Part shown: positions 22,211 through 27,086 of the stretch, piece after piece
Layout of the letters: every line of letters starts with the position of its first letter
Position numbering within the stretch: position 1 is the stretch's first letter
Assembly: GCA_036803025.1 (NCBI GenBank)
Contig: DAIRVC010000002.1
Coordinates: 1-56,671 of the forward strand
Direction: 5' to 3'
Length of the DNA stretch: 56,671 nt
DNA from: Anaerolineales bacterium
GTDB lineage: Bacteria; Chloroflexota; Anaerolineae; Anaerolineales; E44-bin32
The notes under the pieces: generated by a model
Database searches by the model: none
Seen by the model: only the letters and a program-made list of their open reading frames with translations
Told to the model about the DNA's origin: nothing
Made by a program: the position numbers and the translations under genes

Positions 22211-22840
22211 TCATCCATCCGTCGTTCCCAAGTCCATGGACTGTAGCAACCGCTCGAGGTCGGCCCGCGCCTGTTCCGCGGTCCGGAAGTGGATCGCCTG
22301 CATGCCGACCTCCCGGGCGCCGAGCACGTTGACCTCGAAATCATCCACGAAGATCGACTGGGAGGCGTCGACCTGCAGGCGATCGAGGGCCAGCTTGTAG
22401 ATGGCCGGGTCGGGCTTGGCCAGACCGACCTCGGCCGAGATGACCAGCGTATCGAATGCATCGGCGACCCGCCACACCTGCTCGAGGTAGTGACGGATTC
22501 CCGGCCACGCGTTCGAGATCACCCCGGTCTTCAGCCGCGGTCGCAGCGAGCGGATGAACGCGACCAACTCCTGATCGATGCGATCCCCGGCGAAGAAGTC
22601 GGCCGCCAGCTGGTCGCGCTCGCTCTCGTTCAGGCCGAACGACCGCGCCAGATCCCCCCAGATCTGGGCCTCGTCTGCCAGGCCGACCGTCGCCCGCCGC
22701 GCGGGCTCACCCTCGAACACCCTTCGCTCAAGCTCCCCGGCCGGAAGCTGCAGGCGGCGCCGCCACTGCTCGCGCCCGCTCTGATCCTGCGTGCGCAGCA
22801 GCACACCCCCCATATCCCAGAACACGGCACGAATCGTCAT
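22211..22840 (-). CDS. HAD-superfamily hydrolase (subfamily IA)
   Basis: Motifs FWDMGGVL (DxG/DxD type motif I), SNA and VDD. Confidence 0.88.
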   Translation of the reverse strand: MTIRAVFWDMGGVLLRTQDQSGREQWRRRLQLPAGELERRVFEGEPARRATVGLADEAQIWGDLARSFGLNESERDQLAADFFAGDRIDQELVAFIRSLRPRLKTGVISNAWPGIRHYLEQVWRVADAFDTLVISAEVGLAKPDPAIYKLALDRLQVDASQSIFVDDFEVNVLGAREVGMQAIHFRTAEQARADLERLLQSMDLGTTDG

Positions 22841-22848
22841 GGTCGTTC

Positions 22849-23916
22849 TCAGCCCTGGCTGTCCGCCGGAAAGGGAGCGCCGTCAGCCGGATCGAGCGGC
22901 CTGCGCATCAAGAAGAAACGATTGATCGGGCGGAAGCCCAGGCTCTCGTAGAGCCGCAGCGCGCCGCTGGTGTTCTCGCTATCCACGCCTAACGCGGCTT
23001 CCGTCATCCCGCGCGCCCGCAATCCGCGCAGGCTACGCGCCAGCAGGGCGCGGGCAATCCCGCGGCGGCGCCACGGCCGCCGCACGCAGATGTCCTCGGT
23101 GTAGCCGCGCAGTCGATTGTACTCGGCGTTCTCCGTGGCGTTGACAAACGCCAGCACCATCCCGACCACCTGGTCACCCTCCCAGGCCACGCGCCACAGG
23201 CTGGGATCGAACGTCGCTTCGGACCTCCAGCGTTCGTAGTCCTGGTCGCCCATCGGGGTGTACCCCCAATGGTCGCGGAAAGCCTCGTTGTCGGCCTCCC
23301 AGATCCGCCGGTAGTCGGCGGCGATCGCCGGGCGGACCTCGATCCCGTCCGGCAGCGGAAGCTCCGGGATGTCGTCCAGCGTCGGCCGGAGCATCGTGTA
23401 GTCGTAGCGGGCCGGCTGGTACCCATGCCGCATCAGCAAGTCGACGGTGGCGGTCTGTGTCTCGGCGATCATCACCTGGAAGTACTTCTGGATCGACGCC
23501 GGATGCTCCGAAGCGACCTGGCGGAGACGCGCTTCGGTGCGAGCCAGCAGCGCTGCCTCGATACTGTCGCCGCACCATTCCGGCGGCAGCACAATCCGGT
23601 GCGTGTACACGCGCAGCCCGCTCACCGGCTCCTCGCGCCACTCACAGCGCGAGTAGCCAATCACGCCCTCGAGGCCCTCGACCACGGCGACGTCCCGCGC
23701 CAGGTCGCTGTTCTCGAGGTGTTCGTACTGTGTCGCCAGCTCATGGGCGGTCAAGGCGCGCTCGATCCCACCGGCCGCCGCCCAGCGGTTGTAGGCCGCG
23801 GCCATACCGGTGAAGTCCCGCGCCGAGTTCAGGCCGCGCAGCACAACGCCGGGCGCGAGCTCCGTCCGCGGGACGAGGGATGAGGGGATCGTCGCGGGGT
23901 TCATCAGATTGACCAT
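22849..23916 (-). CDS. Two-domain GNAT acetyltransferase (mycothiol-synthase/MshD-like architecture)
   Basis: 355 aa. The C-terminal GNAT domain carries VRRPWRRRGIARALL. RBS GAGAGG. Confidence 0.85.
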   Translation of the reverse strand: MVNLMNPATIPSSLVPRTELAPGVVLRGLNSARDFTGMAAAYNRWAAAGGIERALTAHELATQYEHLENSDLARDVAVVEGLEGVIGYSRCEWREEPVSGLRVYTHRIVLPPEWCGDSIEAALLARTEARLRQVASEHPASIQKYFQVMIAETQTATVDLLMRHGYQPARYDYTMLRPTLDDIPELPLPDGIEVRPAIAADYRRIWEADNEAFRDHWGYTPMGDQDYERWRSEATFDPSLWRVAWEGDQVVGMVLAFVNATENAEYNRLRGYTEDICVRRPWRRRGIARALLARSLRGLRARGMTEAALGVDSENTSGALRLYESLGFRPINRFFLMRRPLDPADGAPFPADSQG

Positions 23917-23943
23917 CGTACACCTCTCACAGCGTCACCGCCG

Positions 23944-23983
23944 GGGCACCCTGCGCACACGCTTCGACGTGCGCAGGGTGCCC
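23944..23983 (-). other. Perfect 15-bp stem-loop between the two GNAT paralogues
   Basis: GGGCACCCTGCGCAC (23944-23958) pairs with GTGCGCAGGGTGCCC (23969-23983), with a 10-nt loop and no U-tract. Confidence 0.6.
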
Positions 23984-24012
23984 GGCGATGGGTCGAACAA
24001 TGCGCGCCGCGA

Positions 24013-25044
24013 TCAAGTGCCATGCAGCGGCCGGCGATAGATCGTTGTCCGGCGGACCGGACGAAAACCCATCCCGGCGAAGAGGCGCATCGTGCCGAAT
24101 GCGTCCTCGACATCGACTTGGCTGGCGGCCTCGTTCATGCCCAGATCGTGCAGAGATGCCAGGCTGCGGGCCAACAGCGCCCTGGCCAGCCCGCGCCGCC
24201 GCCAGGGCCGGCAGACCGTCAACGAATGCAGTCCGCCGCGCCGCCGGCGAAGAGCGGCGTTCTCCTCGGCCGGGATCCAGGGCATGGCCAGGCCGACCAC
24301 CCGATCACCTTCCCAGGCCACCTGCCACAGCTCGGGCTGGCTGGCGGGGTTCTCCAGCCACTCACCGAAGCCGTCCTGGCGGCAGACGACGTGACCCCAT
24401 CGCTCGCGGGCCGCCTGCTCATGCGCCTCCCAGATGGCGCGGTAGTGGTCCGGCTGCGCCCGACGCACCTCGATACCCGCCGGCAGGGCGGCGGCCGGCA
24501 CCTCGTTCAGATCCGGGCGGACCATACCGTATCGGTGCCGCACTGCGGCGTAGCCGTGGCGCAGCAGCAGAACCACCAGGCCGGGTTGCGTCTCGGCGGC
24601 CGTGGCCTGCAGGTAAGCCGATCTCCCGGCGCCCACACGTCCGGCGAGCTCCCGCTGACGGCGATGAGCGCGGTCGAGCATCACGGCGCCCACTCCTCTT
24701 CGACGCGATTCAGGGACCAACGCCCCGAAGTGACGGAAGATCAGGCTCCCGGAGGACTCCCGGCATGCGCGCGTCTGGACGTACCCGACCACTTCTCCAC
24801 GGGCTTCGACGATCTGGAGATCGAAGGTGGGATCGTAGTCGGCCACCGGCCGCAAGGCCTGTTCCCAATCCGCCCGCCCGGCGATGCGATCGATCCGGTC
24901 GGCCGCCAGGCTGCGGCGGAAGACGTCGGCCAGCGCCGGCAGGTCGGCGCGGCCTCGGCAGCCGCGCACCTGCAACCAGGGCGTGGCCGGATGGGCCTGG
25001 CCTGCCAGGGTATCCAACTGTGGGCTGTCGAGTTGAGCATTCAT
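24013..25044 (-). CDS. Two-domain GNAT acetyltransferase, paralogue of 22849-23916
   Basis: ATG at 25044 (MNAQLDS…) with GAGGGAGC upstream. Contains VCRPWRRRGLARALL. Roughly 40-50% identical by eye to the neighbouring gene over the C-terminal half. Confidence 0.82.
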   Translation of the reverse strand: MNAQLDSPQLDTLAGQAHPATPWLQVRGCRGRADLPALADVFRRSLAADRIDRIAGRADWEQALRPVADYDPTFDLQIVEARGEVVGYVQTRACRESSGSLIFRHFGALVPESRRRGVGAVMLDRAHRRQRELAGRVGAGRSAYLQATAAETQPGLVVLLLRHGYAAVRHRYGMVRPDLNEVPAAALPAGIEVRRAQPDHYRAIWEAHEQAARERWGHVVCRQDGFGEWLENPASQPELWQVAWEGDRVVGLAMPWIPAEENAALRRRRGGLHSLTVCRPWRRRGLARALLARSLASLHDLGMNEAASQVDVEDAFGTMRLFAGMGFRPVRRTTIYRRPLHGT

Positions 25045-25094
25045 CGACCTGCTCCCTCGAGCCACGCGACGTCCCCCAGCCCGACCGCAAACGC

Positions 25095-25120
25095 ATCGGC
25101 CGCAGGATCCTGCGGCCGAT
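25095..25120. promoter_or_regulatory. Perfect 26-nt palindrome (operator or second hairpin)
   Basis: ATCGGCCGCAGGATCCTGCGGCCGAT is its own reverse complement. It lies between the terminator and the GNAT start. Confidence 0.4.
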
Positions 25121-25162
25121 GGGGAAAACAAAGGCCGCGGGCGCTGGAGGGCGCCCGCGGCC
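25121..25162 (-). terminator. Rho-independent terminator
   Basis: Minus strand: GGCCGCGGGCGC-CCUCCA-GCGCCCGCGGCC (12-bp perfect stem), followed by UUUGUUUUCC. Confidence 0.7.
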
Positions 25163-25183
25163 GGTACGTCAAGCGACGACTGT

Positions 25184-25282
25184 CTAACGGCCTTTTGGCG
25201 CACTCCGAGAAGGCACAGCACCGCCGATCCCCATCGGGGGCCGGCTGCGAAGCGCCTTCAAGCTAGTCAGGGCGAAGACCAT
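25184..25282 (-). CDS. Candidate 32-codon sORF (MVFALTSLKALRSRPPMGIGGAVPSRSAPKGR). It may instead be a structured non-coding leader or sRNA.
   Basis: AAGGGAGG lies 8 nt upstream of the ATG, with its own promoter upstream and a terminator downstream. No homology recognised. Third-position GC is lower than in neighbouring genes. Confidence 0.3.
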   Translation of the reverse strand: MVFALTSLKALRSRPPMGIGGAVPSRSAPKGR

Positions 25283-25312
25283 TAGACACACCTCCCTTGA
25301 GATGACAGAGAC

Positions 25313-25341
25313 ACTCTACAAGAACCGTCGGCGTGAGTCAA
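25313..25341 (-). promoter_or_regulatory. Sigma70-like promoter TTGACT-N17-TAGAGT
   Basis: On the minus strand: -35 at 25341-25336 and -10 at 25318-25313. It lies 44 nt downstream of the hom stop. Confidence 0.55.
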
Positions 25342-25384: not shown

Positions 25385-26401
25385 TCAAGCCTCGTCACGG
25401 GCGATGCGCAGCACATCCGCCAACAGTCCGTAGGCGGTCGTCTCCGGTCCCGGTCCATGCTCGAAGATCGACAAGCCCGGAAGCACATCCGTAACGAAGT
25501 GAATGGCCGAGGAGGTGCCGTCCACTGAAGCCAGAGGGTCGGTCAGCGGAATCTGCTCGGGCGCAACGCGCGCCACCACCCCCGTCGCAGTGCGCTCGGC
25601 GCGGCAGATCAGCTTGTAGGGGCGGCCGGACTTGCGAGCGGCGCGTATCACCTCGCTGGAAAGCCCACGGATCCCGGTCCGGTCGACTCCGGCCGGTTCG
25701 AGGGGTGAGTCCATCAGGACCGTTGCCAGCGCACAGACCTTCACGGCCGCGTCCCAGCCGTCGATGTCGGCGCTTGGATCGGTCTCGGCGATCCCGATCG
25801 CCTGGGCTTTCCGGACGGCCTCGTCGAAGCTCCGGCCGGCTTCGATCTCGGTCAGGACGAAGTTGGTGGTCGAGTTGAGGATGCCGCGGAAGCGCAGCAG
25901 CCGAGCTGCAGGCAGGGCCTCCCGGAAGAGCGAGAAGATCGGGGTTCCATCCATGACCGTCGACTCGAACAGGAAGCGCCGTCCGGCCCGCGCGGCCAGA
26001 TCGCGCAGCTCACGATAGCCGTAGACAACGGGTCCTTTGTTAGCTGTGACCACATGCAGCCCTTGCCTGAGCGCCTGACGGACGAAATCGAGCGCCGGTT
26101 GCCCGGACTGCGGATCGAGGGAGGTCATCTCCACGAGGATCCCCGCCCGGCAGGCCCCGAGCCAGTCGCCCAGGCAGGAAGGCGCCGAACCGTCCCCAGC
26201 CTGCGGGGCGGTCCCCACCGGGATATCCAGGTCGAGGCCGTCGGGATTGGCGATCCAGCCCAGCTTGCGGCTGGCGACGCCGGTCACCCGCAAGGCCAGC
26301 CCTGCCCCTTCGGCCAGATCGTCAGCCTTGCGACGCAGCAGCGCAGCCAGTGCCCGCCCGACGTTCCCATAACCGAGAAAGGCCAGTGCATAGGAGCGCA
26401 T
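25385..26401 (-). CDS. hom: Homoserine dehydrogenase (no ACT domain)
   Basis: NAD-binding motif FLGYGNVGRAL plus the catalytic domain (NSTTNFVLTE…DGWDAAVK). The ATG at 26401 has GGGAGG upstream. Confidence 0.9.
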   Translation of the reverse strand: MRSYALAFLGYGNVGRALAALLRRKADDLAEGAGLALRVTGVASRKLGWIANPDGLDLDIPVGTAPQAGDGSAPSCLGDWLGACRAGILVEMTSLDPQSGQPALDFVRQALRQGLHVVTANKGPVVYGYRELRDLAARAGRRFLFESTVMDGTPIFSLFREALPAARLLRFRGILNSTTNFVLTEIEAGRSFDEAVRKAQAIGIAETDPSADIDGWDAAVKVCALATVLMDSPLEPAGVDRTGIRGLSSEVIRAARKSGRPYKLICRAERTATGVVARVAPEQIPLTDPLASVDGTSSAIHFVTDVLPGLSIFEHGPGPETTAYGLLADVLRIARDEA

Positions 26402-26576: not shown

Positions 26577-27086
26577 ATGCCCCTGATCGAGTCGATCGAC
26601 CGGCAGATCGTCGACCTCCTGATGGAAGACGGACGCATGCCCTGCGCGCAGATCGCCCGCCGCATCGGTTTTGTGTCCGAGCGGACGGTCCGATACCGCC
26701 TGGACCGGCTGCGTCAGCGCGGGATCATGCGCGTGGTCGCCATCCCCGATCCCAAGGCCCTCGGCTTCAACGTGGTCGCCGATGTCTTCCTCCAAGTCGA
26801 GCCGACCGAGATCAATGCGGTCGCACACCGCATGACCGAATTCGAGTGCGTGAGCTACGTCAGCTGCTCGATGGGCGAGCGCGACGTCAGCATTCAAGTC
26901 GTCGGGCGGGACAACAACGAAGTGTATTCCTTCGTCACCGACACGGTGGCCAAGGTCCCCGGGGTGCGCAAGACCACGACGCTGATCGTCCCCGTCGTGC
27001 TGAAAGATGTCTACCAGTGGCGCATCCCGGCCGGCATTTGCCGGGAAGGCCCGCCCGCCGTCGGCCCCGGAGCGGGGCAGGCCTAG
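26577..27086 (+). CDS. Lrp/AsnC-family transcriptional regulator
   Basis: N-terminal HTH (IDRQIVDLLMEDGRMPCAQIARRIGFVSERTVRYRLDRL) plus a RAM/ASNC effector domain. Confidence 0.9.
   Translation: MPLIESIDRQIVDLLMEDGRMPCAQIARRIGFVSERTVRYRLDRLRQRGIMRVVAIPDPKALGFNVVADVFLQVEPTEINAVAHRMTEFECVSYVSCSMGERDVSIQVVGRDNNEVYSFVTDTVAKVPGVRKTTTLIVPVVLKDVYQWRIPAGICREGPPAVGPGAGQA

Follow-up and report, generated by a model that had tools for sequence, protein, structure and literature searches.

Background

Transcription attenuation that depends on the translation of an open reading frame lying upstream (uORF) is well known as a kind of gene control. The whiB7 attenuator of mycobacteria and other actinobacteria has been described as combining a short uORF, a rho-independent terminator and an alternative antiterminator, which together sense translation stress and ribosome-targeting antibiotics (PMC10274678). 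The antibiotic-induced WhiB7 regulon of Mycobacterium abscessus includes GNAT proteins, the tandem GNAT MAB_4324c among them, as well as ABC ATP-binding proteins, MFS pumps, a phosphotransferase and HflX (PMC10727445). Here we analyze a cassette of related composition on the minus strand of an Anaerolineales (Chloroflexota) contig, DAIRVC010000002.1, the whole analyzed stretch of which (56,671 nt) we refer to as the window. The cassette combines a promoter, a Shine-Dalgarno sequence (SD), a small open reading frame (sORF) and two hairpins, T1 and T2, and stands ahead of an operon encoding two GNAT proteins and a HAD hydrolase (GNAT1-GNAT2-HAD). Our results reveal that it is one of at least about 100 distinct copies in Chloroflexota genomes and metagenomes ranging from 35 to 68% GC, and make it fairly probable that the cassette is the 5' leader of this operon and acts as a ribosome-dependent, uORF-based transcription attenuator belonging to a conserved Chloroflexota family.

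The likeness to whiB7 lies in the combination of short uORF, terminator and antiterminator, and in the final target genes, which are parallel in the two systems (GNATs including tandem ones, ABC proteins, MFS, phosphotransferase and a ribosome GTPase). The wiring differs, in that one whiB7 leader serves one transcription factor, which in turn activates the regulon, whereas the leader analyzed here is copied before each target gene. The whiB7 uORF is variable and 25-40% alanine (PMC10274678), and the consulted passages on it do not mention tandem terminators with shared arms; here the alanine content is 12.3%, the RNA is highly conserved and two terminators share their arms. There is no sequence similarity between the two leaders, which belong to different phyla. 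The alanine-rich uORF ahead of a WhiB-family factor that would define a whiB7-type leader is not what we find, the downstream genes being enzymes and transporters, with no regulator.

To our knowledge, the leaders of vmlR, hflX and toiL are each tied to one particular gene; toiL reportedly precedes a GNAT gene, yjhQ, and is said to act through Rho. The proposed principle, a stall in a leader ORF that leads to expression of a resistance or rescue gene, is shared with vmlR of Bacillus subtilis (PMC9226507), with the hflX leader ORF uORFC-6-1 (PMC8632094) and with toiL before topAI-yjhQ of Escherichia coli (PMC12121999), and further uORF attenuator candidates have come from the Breaker laboratory (PMC8632094, PMC11109978). 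Unlike these leaders, the family described here would use an ORF of about 30 codons whose own 3' end is the antiterminator strand, an anti-antiterminator adjacent to the SD and a second terminator with the same arms. With the trp, his and leu attenuators it has in common a four-segment 1:2 / 2:3 / 3:4 logic, a leader peptide, an intrinsic terminator and a stop codon placed so that the ribosome can cover segment 2; it differs from them in lacking a regulatory codon run, in having downstream genes that, save for one AsnA, are not amino-acid biosynthetic, in a segment 1 that overlaps SD and start codon instead of control codons, and in the extra segment pair T2. What is distinct about the family is the reuse of one conserved RNA core before many unrelated genes, together with the translation of that core in two frames, the fusion of the anti-antiterminator to the SD and the sharing of arms by two terminators. 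Literature searches returned no Chloroflexota leader of this kind, and the family is apparently undescribed.

Methods

All cassette coordinates were read on the minus strand of the window and checked element by element. Promoter-like and terminator-like sites were located by consensus scans of the window between positions 23500 and 27000. Five homologous loci (L005, L009, L013, L014 and L017) were retrieved by way of the GNAT protein, without an RNA pattern; L007 and L010 were added by profile search, and closer relatives through GNAT1 homologues P0002-P0005 (48-72% identity). Metagenomes were scanned with one pattern, AGTGCGCC-N30-46-GCCRCGGG-N8-14-CCCGYGGC, which returned at least 120 stretches. 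Alignment A3 contains 99 distinct leaders. For the relay fold test, the 5' part of the leader was removed and the 3' arm of T1 was constrained to pair downstream.

Results

The initial annotation, made from the letters of the window alone, had described a promoter, an SD and start codon opening a 32-codon ORF, a GC-rich terminator and a perfect 26-nt palindrome upstream of GNAT1, a helix between the segments holding the AUG and the stop codon, and a lack of promoter-like hexamers between the terminator and the GNAT1 start codon. All of these features were recovered (Table 1). Each of the 12 pairs in the stem of T1 is G-C, and T1 is the only terminator-like site found by consensus scan between positions 23500 and 27000; the same interval contains a single sigma-70-like site, that of the cassette, shuffled sequences containing 0.3 on average, and no promoter-like hexamers lie between T1 and the ATG of GNAT1. 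The palindrome occurs once in the window and in 0 of 100 shuffles. In the minimum-free-energy (MFE) fold GUCUAAUGGUC pairs with GGCCGUUAGAC, as had been proposed for the AUG and stop segments, and this helix is kept in the four nearest relatives, with a few compensatory changes; the leader as a whole (25312-25040) folds at -150.9 kcal/mol, compared with -121.9 +/- 5.3 kcal/mol for its shuffles (z = -5.45). Taken together, the listed elements of the window exceed chance expectation.

A blastn search of the cassette against 25 GNAT loci gave weak, co-located matches, which turned out on reading to be counterparts of the cassette in L005, L009, L013 and L017; L014 was added later. Each of them has a promoter, an SD and a terminator, and its ORF, opened by an ATG and about 30 codons long, encodes a peptide that ends in …G-G-x-V-P-S-R-S-A-P-x-x-x*. 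The closer relatives obtained through P0002-P0005 keep the promoter, SD, sORF, T1 and T2 within the same synteny (hom, cassette, GNAT-GNAT-HAD), and both promoter hexamers are identical in L032, L033, L034 and L035. Among the 120 matches of the metagenome scan that were listed, about 95 are true members, on contigs of 35-68% GC, and one pattern-derived locus (L131) could be assigned to Chloroflexota by its RsgA relatives. In all copies the elements come in one order, namely promoter, SD, sORF (about 20-35 codons), the conserved segment S2 (CGGAGUGCGCCU), T1 with its large conserved loop, T2 and, on the same strand, a gene. In the 5' part, an anchored view and A3 give the consensus as an extended -10 box, TGnTAnACT, of the type seen in distant members, followed by AAAGGAG(G)-GCGCAC-N3-8-AUG and a mid hairpin ending in CGGYGG; the 3' part reads CCUUCUCGG-AGUGCGCCU-GUUGAYCGNUAR, then GCCACGGG-[UGCRCUCCA]-CCCGUGGC and U6-8. 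The local hairpin in the middle of the sORF is predicted in most members, with a modest z-score (mean -0.92). The initial annotation had proposed conservation of either peptide or structure in related genomes as a check of its reading, and what is kept across the family is the RNA motif, its pairings and the geometry of the sORF. A consensus structure for the interior of the whole family was sought and abandoned, as RNAalifold returns T1 only and a column-wise helix scan returns nothing; interior pairing appears to be clade-specific, or the alignment too noisy.

Analysis of the sORFs separates conservation of the RNA from conservation of the peptide. A start codon occupies the aligned column in 93 of 99 members (89 ATG, 4 GTG), with the SD also present, and the sORFs, 20-35 codons long, remain open through S2 and stop 11-21 nt past the start of its AGU. 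The same nucleotides are read as …RSAPxxx* in about 65 loci and in the +1 frame, through the UGA in CCUGUUGA, as …SECA[CY]* in about 21. In all early members, those from high-GC genomes included, the serine codon is always AGU and the alanine codon always GCG, and lineages that were retrieved without the search pattern have both codons as well. These frozen codons therefore indicate selection at the RNA level, and translation of the motif in two frames indicates selection on the RNA and on the act of translation, not on the peptide end. By this comparative evidence, the conserved entity is an RNA motif overlain by a translated ORF that stops at a fixed distance. The sORF peptides match neither Pfam nor NCBIfam models, and a peptide-profile search of 5.8 billion proteins yielded three gene calls of such sORFs, which are therefore unusable for mapping the family. 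The peptides are composed of 12.3% alanine, 12% serine, 9% valine and 8% arginine, and no regulatory codon run is visible in those listed.

Upstream of S2 the sORFs carry a different signal. In 39% of them, compared with 14 +/- 3% of residue-shuffled peptides, residue 10 or 12 begins an [RK]x[RK] motif, which lies 45-49 nt before S2. Its codons include all four CGN as well as AAA and AAG, a synonymous variety suggesting that selection here acts on the amino acids. The motif resembles the +x+ motif of macrolide-dependent ribosome arrest. Leader peptides of antibiotic resistance contain Arg-Leu-Arg, which is also conserved in the uORF motif of hflX (PMC8632094). The [RK]x[RK] motif is a possible stall motif, its counterpart in the window being R12-S13-R14 followed by P15-P16. 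A near-identical strain (L026:2730-2876) differs from the window between 25390 and 25040 by one single-nucleotide polymorphism, the sole difference in the compared cassette segment; it changes the sORF by R12C (…LKALCSRPP…; window ~25249-25247), with loss of the first basic residue of R-S-R.

Three segments of the leader are mutually complementary. S2 (GGAGUGCGCCU) is complementary both to S1 (AGGCGCAC[U]), which lies directly 3' of the SD, and to S3 (GG[Y]GC[R]CUCC), which spans the upper 5' arm of T1 and its unusually large loop. S1 has the family-wide form AGGAGGCGCAC (GGCGCAC) and ends 1-6 nt before the ATG. At least six contiguous Watson-Crick pairs between S1 and S2 are available in 45 of 99 members and in 3.2% of shuffles; the duplex has a mean energy of -15.4 kcal/mol, as against -10.2 kcal/mol in shuffled leaders, and 75.5% of cells are paired in register, as against 20-60% in shifted registers. 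For S2:S3, pairing in register extends to 88.2% of cells, shifted registers giving 26-64%; the duplex has a mean energy of -19.2 kcal/mol (-12.8 kcal/mol with shuffled loops), 95% of members doing better by more than one standard deviation. Variation in S3 is limited to the R/Y options that still pair with the invariant S2 (UA 45/UG 33, GU 48/GC 30, GC 61/GU 21), and in L010, which was found outside the pattern, an S2 variant, CCGGUG, is matched by the loop CACUG, a compensatory change from G:C to C:G. T1 itself is paired in 99.7% of cells, with an A:U to G:C swap at position 4 in eight sequences, and its basal pair, which falls outside the search pattern, covaries (AU 41, GC 29, GU 19, CG 5); to judge from these substitutions, T1 is a genuine hairpin.

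The cassette of the window belongs to a clade, comprising the window and L032-L035, in which S1 has drifted to GGAGGUGUGUC. In this clade the sORF domain is closed instead by the helix between start and stop regions and by GAAGGCG:UGCCUUC, two helices that a few compensatory changes support. S2 of the window sits in a weakly paired internal loop, and its duplex with S3 has an energy of -18.5 kcal/mol, compared with -14.3 +/- 2.5 kcal/mol when the loop is shuffled. A constrained fold provides a candidate antiterminator in which 25206-25188 pairs with 25163-25146, extending S2:S3 by GGCCG (25192-25188):CGGCC (25163-25159).

The palindrome, which the initial annotation had left uninterpreted, is a second T1-like hairpin, T2, present in most members, and not a stand-alone operator. 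T2 follows T1 by a median of 30 nt in most members, with arms GCCACGG…CCGUGGC and a U tract of its own, and is succeeded by the downstream SD and ATG; a strict regular expression finds it in at least 63 of 102 distinct members, 57 of these 63 having at least five U in the next 10 nt. Among close relatives its central loop alone varies (GAUC, AGUC, AUUC, ACCC). The arm of T2 follows that of T1 through five variants, namely GCCACGGG in the majority, GGCCGUGG in L007, GGCCGGGG in L005, CCACGGGC in L010 and that of the window clade (GGCCGCGG in T1 and GGCCGCAG in T2). The 3' arm of T1 is therefore complementary to the 5' arm of T2, in the window at 8 of 9 positions by visual inspection, and a relay from one hairpin to the other is therefore allowed. 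Across members, the relay fold test places the constrained conformer 2.6 kcal/mol (median) above the MFE. It has S2 paired with S3 in several inspected members, L043 and L150 among them; for these two, a fold that is favoured or nearly so joins S2 to the 5' arm and loop of T1, and that of L150 also joins the T1 3' arm to the T2 5' arm.

The genes that follow the leader connect the family to a recognizable set of functions. Downstream sequence of 700 nt or more is available for 88 distinct members, of which at least 79 have a co-oriented downstream gene, and at least two of seven apparent exceptions in orientation, the window included, are artefacts of antisense ORFs in high-GC DNA. Downstream starts mostly lie less than 200 nt from T1. 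The largest classes are single-domain ABC ATPases and fused ABC exporters (34 loci) and tandem GNATs like GNAT1 (20), followed by Acetyltransf_3 (RimJ/RimL-like) GNATs (4), RsgA (4), RIO1/APH-like kinases (3), MFS (2) and AsnA (1); the leader in L042 precedes an ABC-F-like protein, classified by eye from its two ABC domains. In nine loci the gene directly downstream encodes a protein family of about 200 aa, without Pfam domain or sequence relative in the PDB, which we regard as a candidate for a new factor in translation stress or resistance. The subfamily of a leader goes with the class of its downstream gene, and the gene set as a whole resembles the WhiB7 regulon.

These results jointly provide, in silico, the parts of an attenuator, namely a leader ORF with SD and start codon, an intrinsic terminator between ORF and gene, an antiterminator on the 5' arm of that terminator and a co-oriented adjacent gene, before which the scan of the window finds no promoter-like site. 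In the mechanism that we propose, the promoter would fire constitutively. With no ribosome on the leader, S2 would be held in the closed sORF hairpin, through S1:S2 in most members and through the start-region:stop-region helix and GAAGGCG:UGCCUUC in the window; T1 would form and transcription would stop. Under normal translation the ribosome reaching the stop codon just 3' of S2 would cover S2, T1 would again form and transcription would likewise stop. If the ribosome were arrested at or near the start codon or inside the sORF, for instance at R-S-R/PP, the closing helix would melt, leaving S2 uncovered to form S2:S3. T1 would then be blocked, its freed 3' arm would capture the 5' arm of T2 before the 3' arm of T2 is transcribed, and the polymerase would pass both terminators. 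We infer the direction of the switch, its signal and the relay from T1 to T2 from the pairings and gene content described above; since the gene set parallels the WhiB7 regulon of M. abscessus, the signal is probably, by analogy, translation stress such as that caused by ribosome-targeting antibiotics.

Discussion

The initial annotation had offered a choice between an independent small-protein or small RNA (sRNA) gene and a leader, sensing either a peptide or a ligand, that controls read-through into the operon. The leader option is the one that our analysis supports, because at least 79 of 88 downstream genes are co-oriented, leader subfamilies track gene class and a segment of the sORF is complementary to the 5' arm and loop of T1. 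A small protein is made less likely by the use of two frames for what had looked like a conserved peptide end, and the sRNA option is less favoured. Within the leader option, the leader may also be a ligand-sensing one. A riboswitch or protein-binding leader, in which the core (S1, S2, the T1 loop and the mid hairpin) binds a small molecule or an RNA-binding protein that sets S2:S3 against T1, with an accessory sORF, would explain the very high conservation across 35-68% GC, which extends to the predicted unpaired CCUUCUCGG, to GUUGAYCG and to the 11-nt T1 loop. Several toxin-responsive riboswitches likewise precede exporters and modifying enzymes, and the contact between S2 and the T1 loop could be a pseudoknot. 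We nevertheless consider this reading unlikely. Much of the conservation is accounted for by the SD-anchored three-way complementarity, no conserved multi-helix junction was detected in the interior, and about 95% of members keep an SD, a start and a stop at fixed distance after S2, in two frames, none of which a pure aptamer needs. Rfam 15 bears out the earlier impression that the cassette matches no recognizable riboswitch class, with nothing at gathering thresholds in the window, no relevant match at those thresholds in 22 member loci and no family even at permissive E-values in 18 of the member loci; the permissive matches in the window, nrdJ and asX1, cover the two hairpins only. The best sub-threshold match is that of nrdJ RNA (RF03034) to T1 and T2 (25090-25165, minus strand; 27.6 bits, E = 0.004, below the gathering threshold of 40.3). 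In nrdJ RNA, as in the leader, one GC-rich hairpin follows another, and the first stem (CCGCGGGCGCC) is nearly identical; nrdJ RNA may be built similarly, as a unit of tandem terminators. The match does not cover the sORF or S2, and no family member reaches the threshold. The weak asX1 match had raised a Xanthomonad sRNA or repetitive extragenic palindromic (REP)-like repeat as a candidate, which we rejected because the palindrome and the cassette occur once in the window and the organism is a member of Chloroflexota. 6S RNA, signal recognition particle RNA and other housekeeping RNAs, suggested by the length of about 180 nt and the strong promoter, were set aside on the lack of an Rfam match, the multiple copies distributed by gene class and the presence of SD and ATG.

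An independent and abundant sRNA gene of about 180 nt, possibly of dual function through the 32-aa peptide, that ends at T1/T2 and acts in trans, for example via the C-rich, anti-SD-like CUCC of the T1 loop, would turn the adjacency to GNAT and ABC genes into co-inheritance instead of cis control. In favour of such a gene, the cassette brings a strong promoter of its own and, one after the other, two terminators that carry U tracts; the CUCC of the T1 loop and the GGAG of S2 resemble anti-SD and SD seeds, and there is precedent for trans-acting terminated attenuator RNAs and leader peptides in rnTrpL/peTrpL (PMC7298713). The placement of the copies makes it quite improbable all the same, as downstream genes are co-oriented and tens of nucleotides away, their class co-varies with the leader subfamily, the window has no promoter-like site between T1 and GNAT1, and the single copy in its 56 kb stands immediately upstream of a typical target gene. 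A secondary role in trans for the terminated leader, as an sRNA alongside cis control, could coexist with attenuation. Reading the sORF as a conserved small protein or as the precursor of a ribosomally synthesized and post-translationally modified peptide (RiPP), with a C-terminal core G-G-x-V-P-S-R-S-A-P modified by the adjacent GNATs and exported by the ABC transporters, was our own initial interpretation, drawn from the apparently conserved C-terminal motif of the first ten sequences and from a layout (precursor, leaky terminator, enzymes and transporter) resembling that of RiPP clusters. We dropped it, and regard it as highly improbable, on the basis of the +1-frame subfamily, in which about 21 members read the same nucleotides as SECAC*, and of the frozen AGU (Ser) and GCG (Ala) codons, which indicate RNA-level selection. 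No common maturase accompanies the sORFs, the downstream gene being in some cases RsgA, a kinase, MFS or AsnA, and the peptides are as scarce in protein collections and domain models as described above.

Several observations weigh against the attenuator that we favour. In the clade of the window S1:S2 is no better than shuffled (-9.3 vs -10.3 kcal/mol), and the antiterminated conformer of the window is 11.7 kcal/mol less stable than that with T1 and T2, so that, given the 12-bp GC stem of T1, a switch in the window could only be kinetic. Equilibrium folds often retain T2 even when S2:S3 has formed, and the concordance of T1 and T2 arms, although formally significant (Fisher p = 5.5e-4), rests on one clade and is suggestive only. 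Double-sided covariation is nil for S1:S2 and amounts to few cases for S2:S3; it is scarce because AGUGCGCC and the core of the T1 stem owe their invariance in the large set partly to the search pattern. The position of the stall that permits read-through is uncertain, because a ribosome stalled in the middle of the ORF would not mask S1, and a free-standing gene for a highly expressed small RNA would fit the two strong serial terminators as well.

Beyond the individual leader, it is possible, and we advance it only tentatively, that Chloroflexota wire a phylum-wide regulon for translation stress and intrinsic resistance in cis, by copying one ribosome-sensing RNA module before dozens of unrelated genes for efflux, drug modification and ribosome maintenance, and that this does the job of WhiB7 in actinobacteria; the same tentative proposal includes the composition of the module, with an anti-antiterminator linked to the SD, the 3' end of the sORF as antiterminator and two terminators with shared arms relayed by a single switch. 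If the attenuator model is right, it would add a large new cis-regulatory RNA family, of more than 100 members, in a phylum whose RNA regulation is barely known, and the leader would flag genes responsive to translation stress or antibiotics in uncultured Chloroflexota, including the 200-aa family and the tandem GNATs of unknown substrate. The leader would also represent a compact natural design in which one sensor governs two serial terminators, allowing tight gene control with low leakage. The finding that a peptide-like conservation is really that of an RNA read in two frames calls for caution in the mining of small proteins and RiPPs.

Genomic context

The features of the cassette and of the genes associated with it are collected in Table 1. 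The ATG of GNAT1 is the start in independent gene calls on six public contigs with an identical GNAT1, whose leaders are 99.6-100% identical to that of the window, and the synteny of GNAT1, GNAT2 and HAD is kept in L026-L034. The closest relatives of GNAT1 among GTDB species representatives come from metagenome-assembled genomes of Chloroflexia and Anaerolineae, at no more than 42% identity.

Table 1. Features of the leader cassette, the operon downstream of it and the 200-aa family (window positions unless a locus is given)
Feature	Position	Strand	Details
Promoter	25313..25341	-	-35 TTGACT (25341-25336), 17-nt spacer, -10 TAGAGT (25318-25313); predicted transcription start near 25306
SD and SD-proximal/start-codon segment	25277..25298	-	SD AAGGGAGG (25298-25291); S1 equivalent, predicted 5' strand of sORF-closing helix
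Leader sORF, 32 codons + stop	25184..25282	-	ATG 25282-25280, 8 nt after SD; stop TAG 25186-25184; peptide MVFALTSLKALRSRPPMGIGGAVPSRSAPKGR; carries R12-S13-R14, then P15-P16
Apical hairpin within sORF	25221..25244	-	GCCGGCCCC-GAUG-GGGGAUCGGC; counterpart of family mid hairpin
S2 motif	25197..25213	-	CCUUCUCGGAGUGCGCC, core GGAGUGCGCC at 25206-25197; putative switch segment, complementary to S1 and S3
S3	25155-25146	-	GGCGCCCUCC; upper 5' arm and loop of T1
Terminator T1	25125..25163	-	5' arm 25162-25151, loop CCUCCA 25150-25145, 3' arm 25144-25133, U tract UUUGUUUU 25132-25125
Second hairpin T2 (26-nt palindrome)	25095..25120	-	Stem CGGCCGCAGG / CCUGCGGCCG; weak U-rich tail GCGUUUG
GNAT1 SD and start codon	25042..25058	-	SD GAGGGAG 25058-25052, ATG 25044-25042; start of first putatively regulated gene
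Putatively regulated operon	22211..25044	-	GNAT1 24013-25044, GNAT2 22849-23916, HAD hydrolase 22211-22840 (Pfam and NCBIfam)
Family of about 200 aa, L100	L100:7791-8429	-	
Family of about 200 aa, L037	L037:364-990	+	
Family of about 200 aa, other loci			L060, L096, L101, L106, L124, L134, L146

The reading frame of GNAT1 is open for 59 codons upstream of its ATG, across T2 and T1 to a GTG at 25221 (24013-25221, minus strand), and automatic annotation could extend GNAT1 too far, over the leader. The approximately 50 nt between T2 and the GNAT1 start (25045-25094, minus strand; …GCUGGGGGACGUCGCGUGGCUCGAGGGAGCAGG…) are almost invariant in L032-L034, though the flanking protein is about 70% identical, and this segment could add a translational layer by sequestering the SD of GNAT1. 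Among solved structures, 7q3a ('Putative acetyltransferase, GNAT', 352 aa, E = 6e-19) comes closest to GNAT1. Its name equals the annotation of M. abscessus MAB_4324c, the tandem GNAT of the antibiotic-induced WhiB7 regulon, which we take 7q3a to be.

Directly upstream of the cassette lies a homoserine dehydrogenase gene (25385-26401, minus strand), from which an AsnC/Lrp-family regulator gene (26577-27086, plus strand) diverges; the pair is kept in L026, L030, L032 and L034. A plasmid or mobile origin was considered and rejected, as blastn gave no match in PLSDB. One short contig with a family member also carries an unrelated T-box leader (L147:111-381, minus strand), which scores 95.6 bits, above its gathering score.

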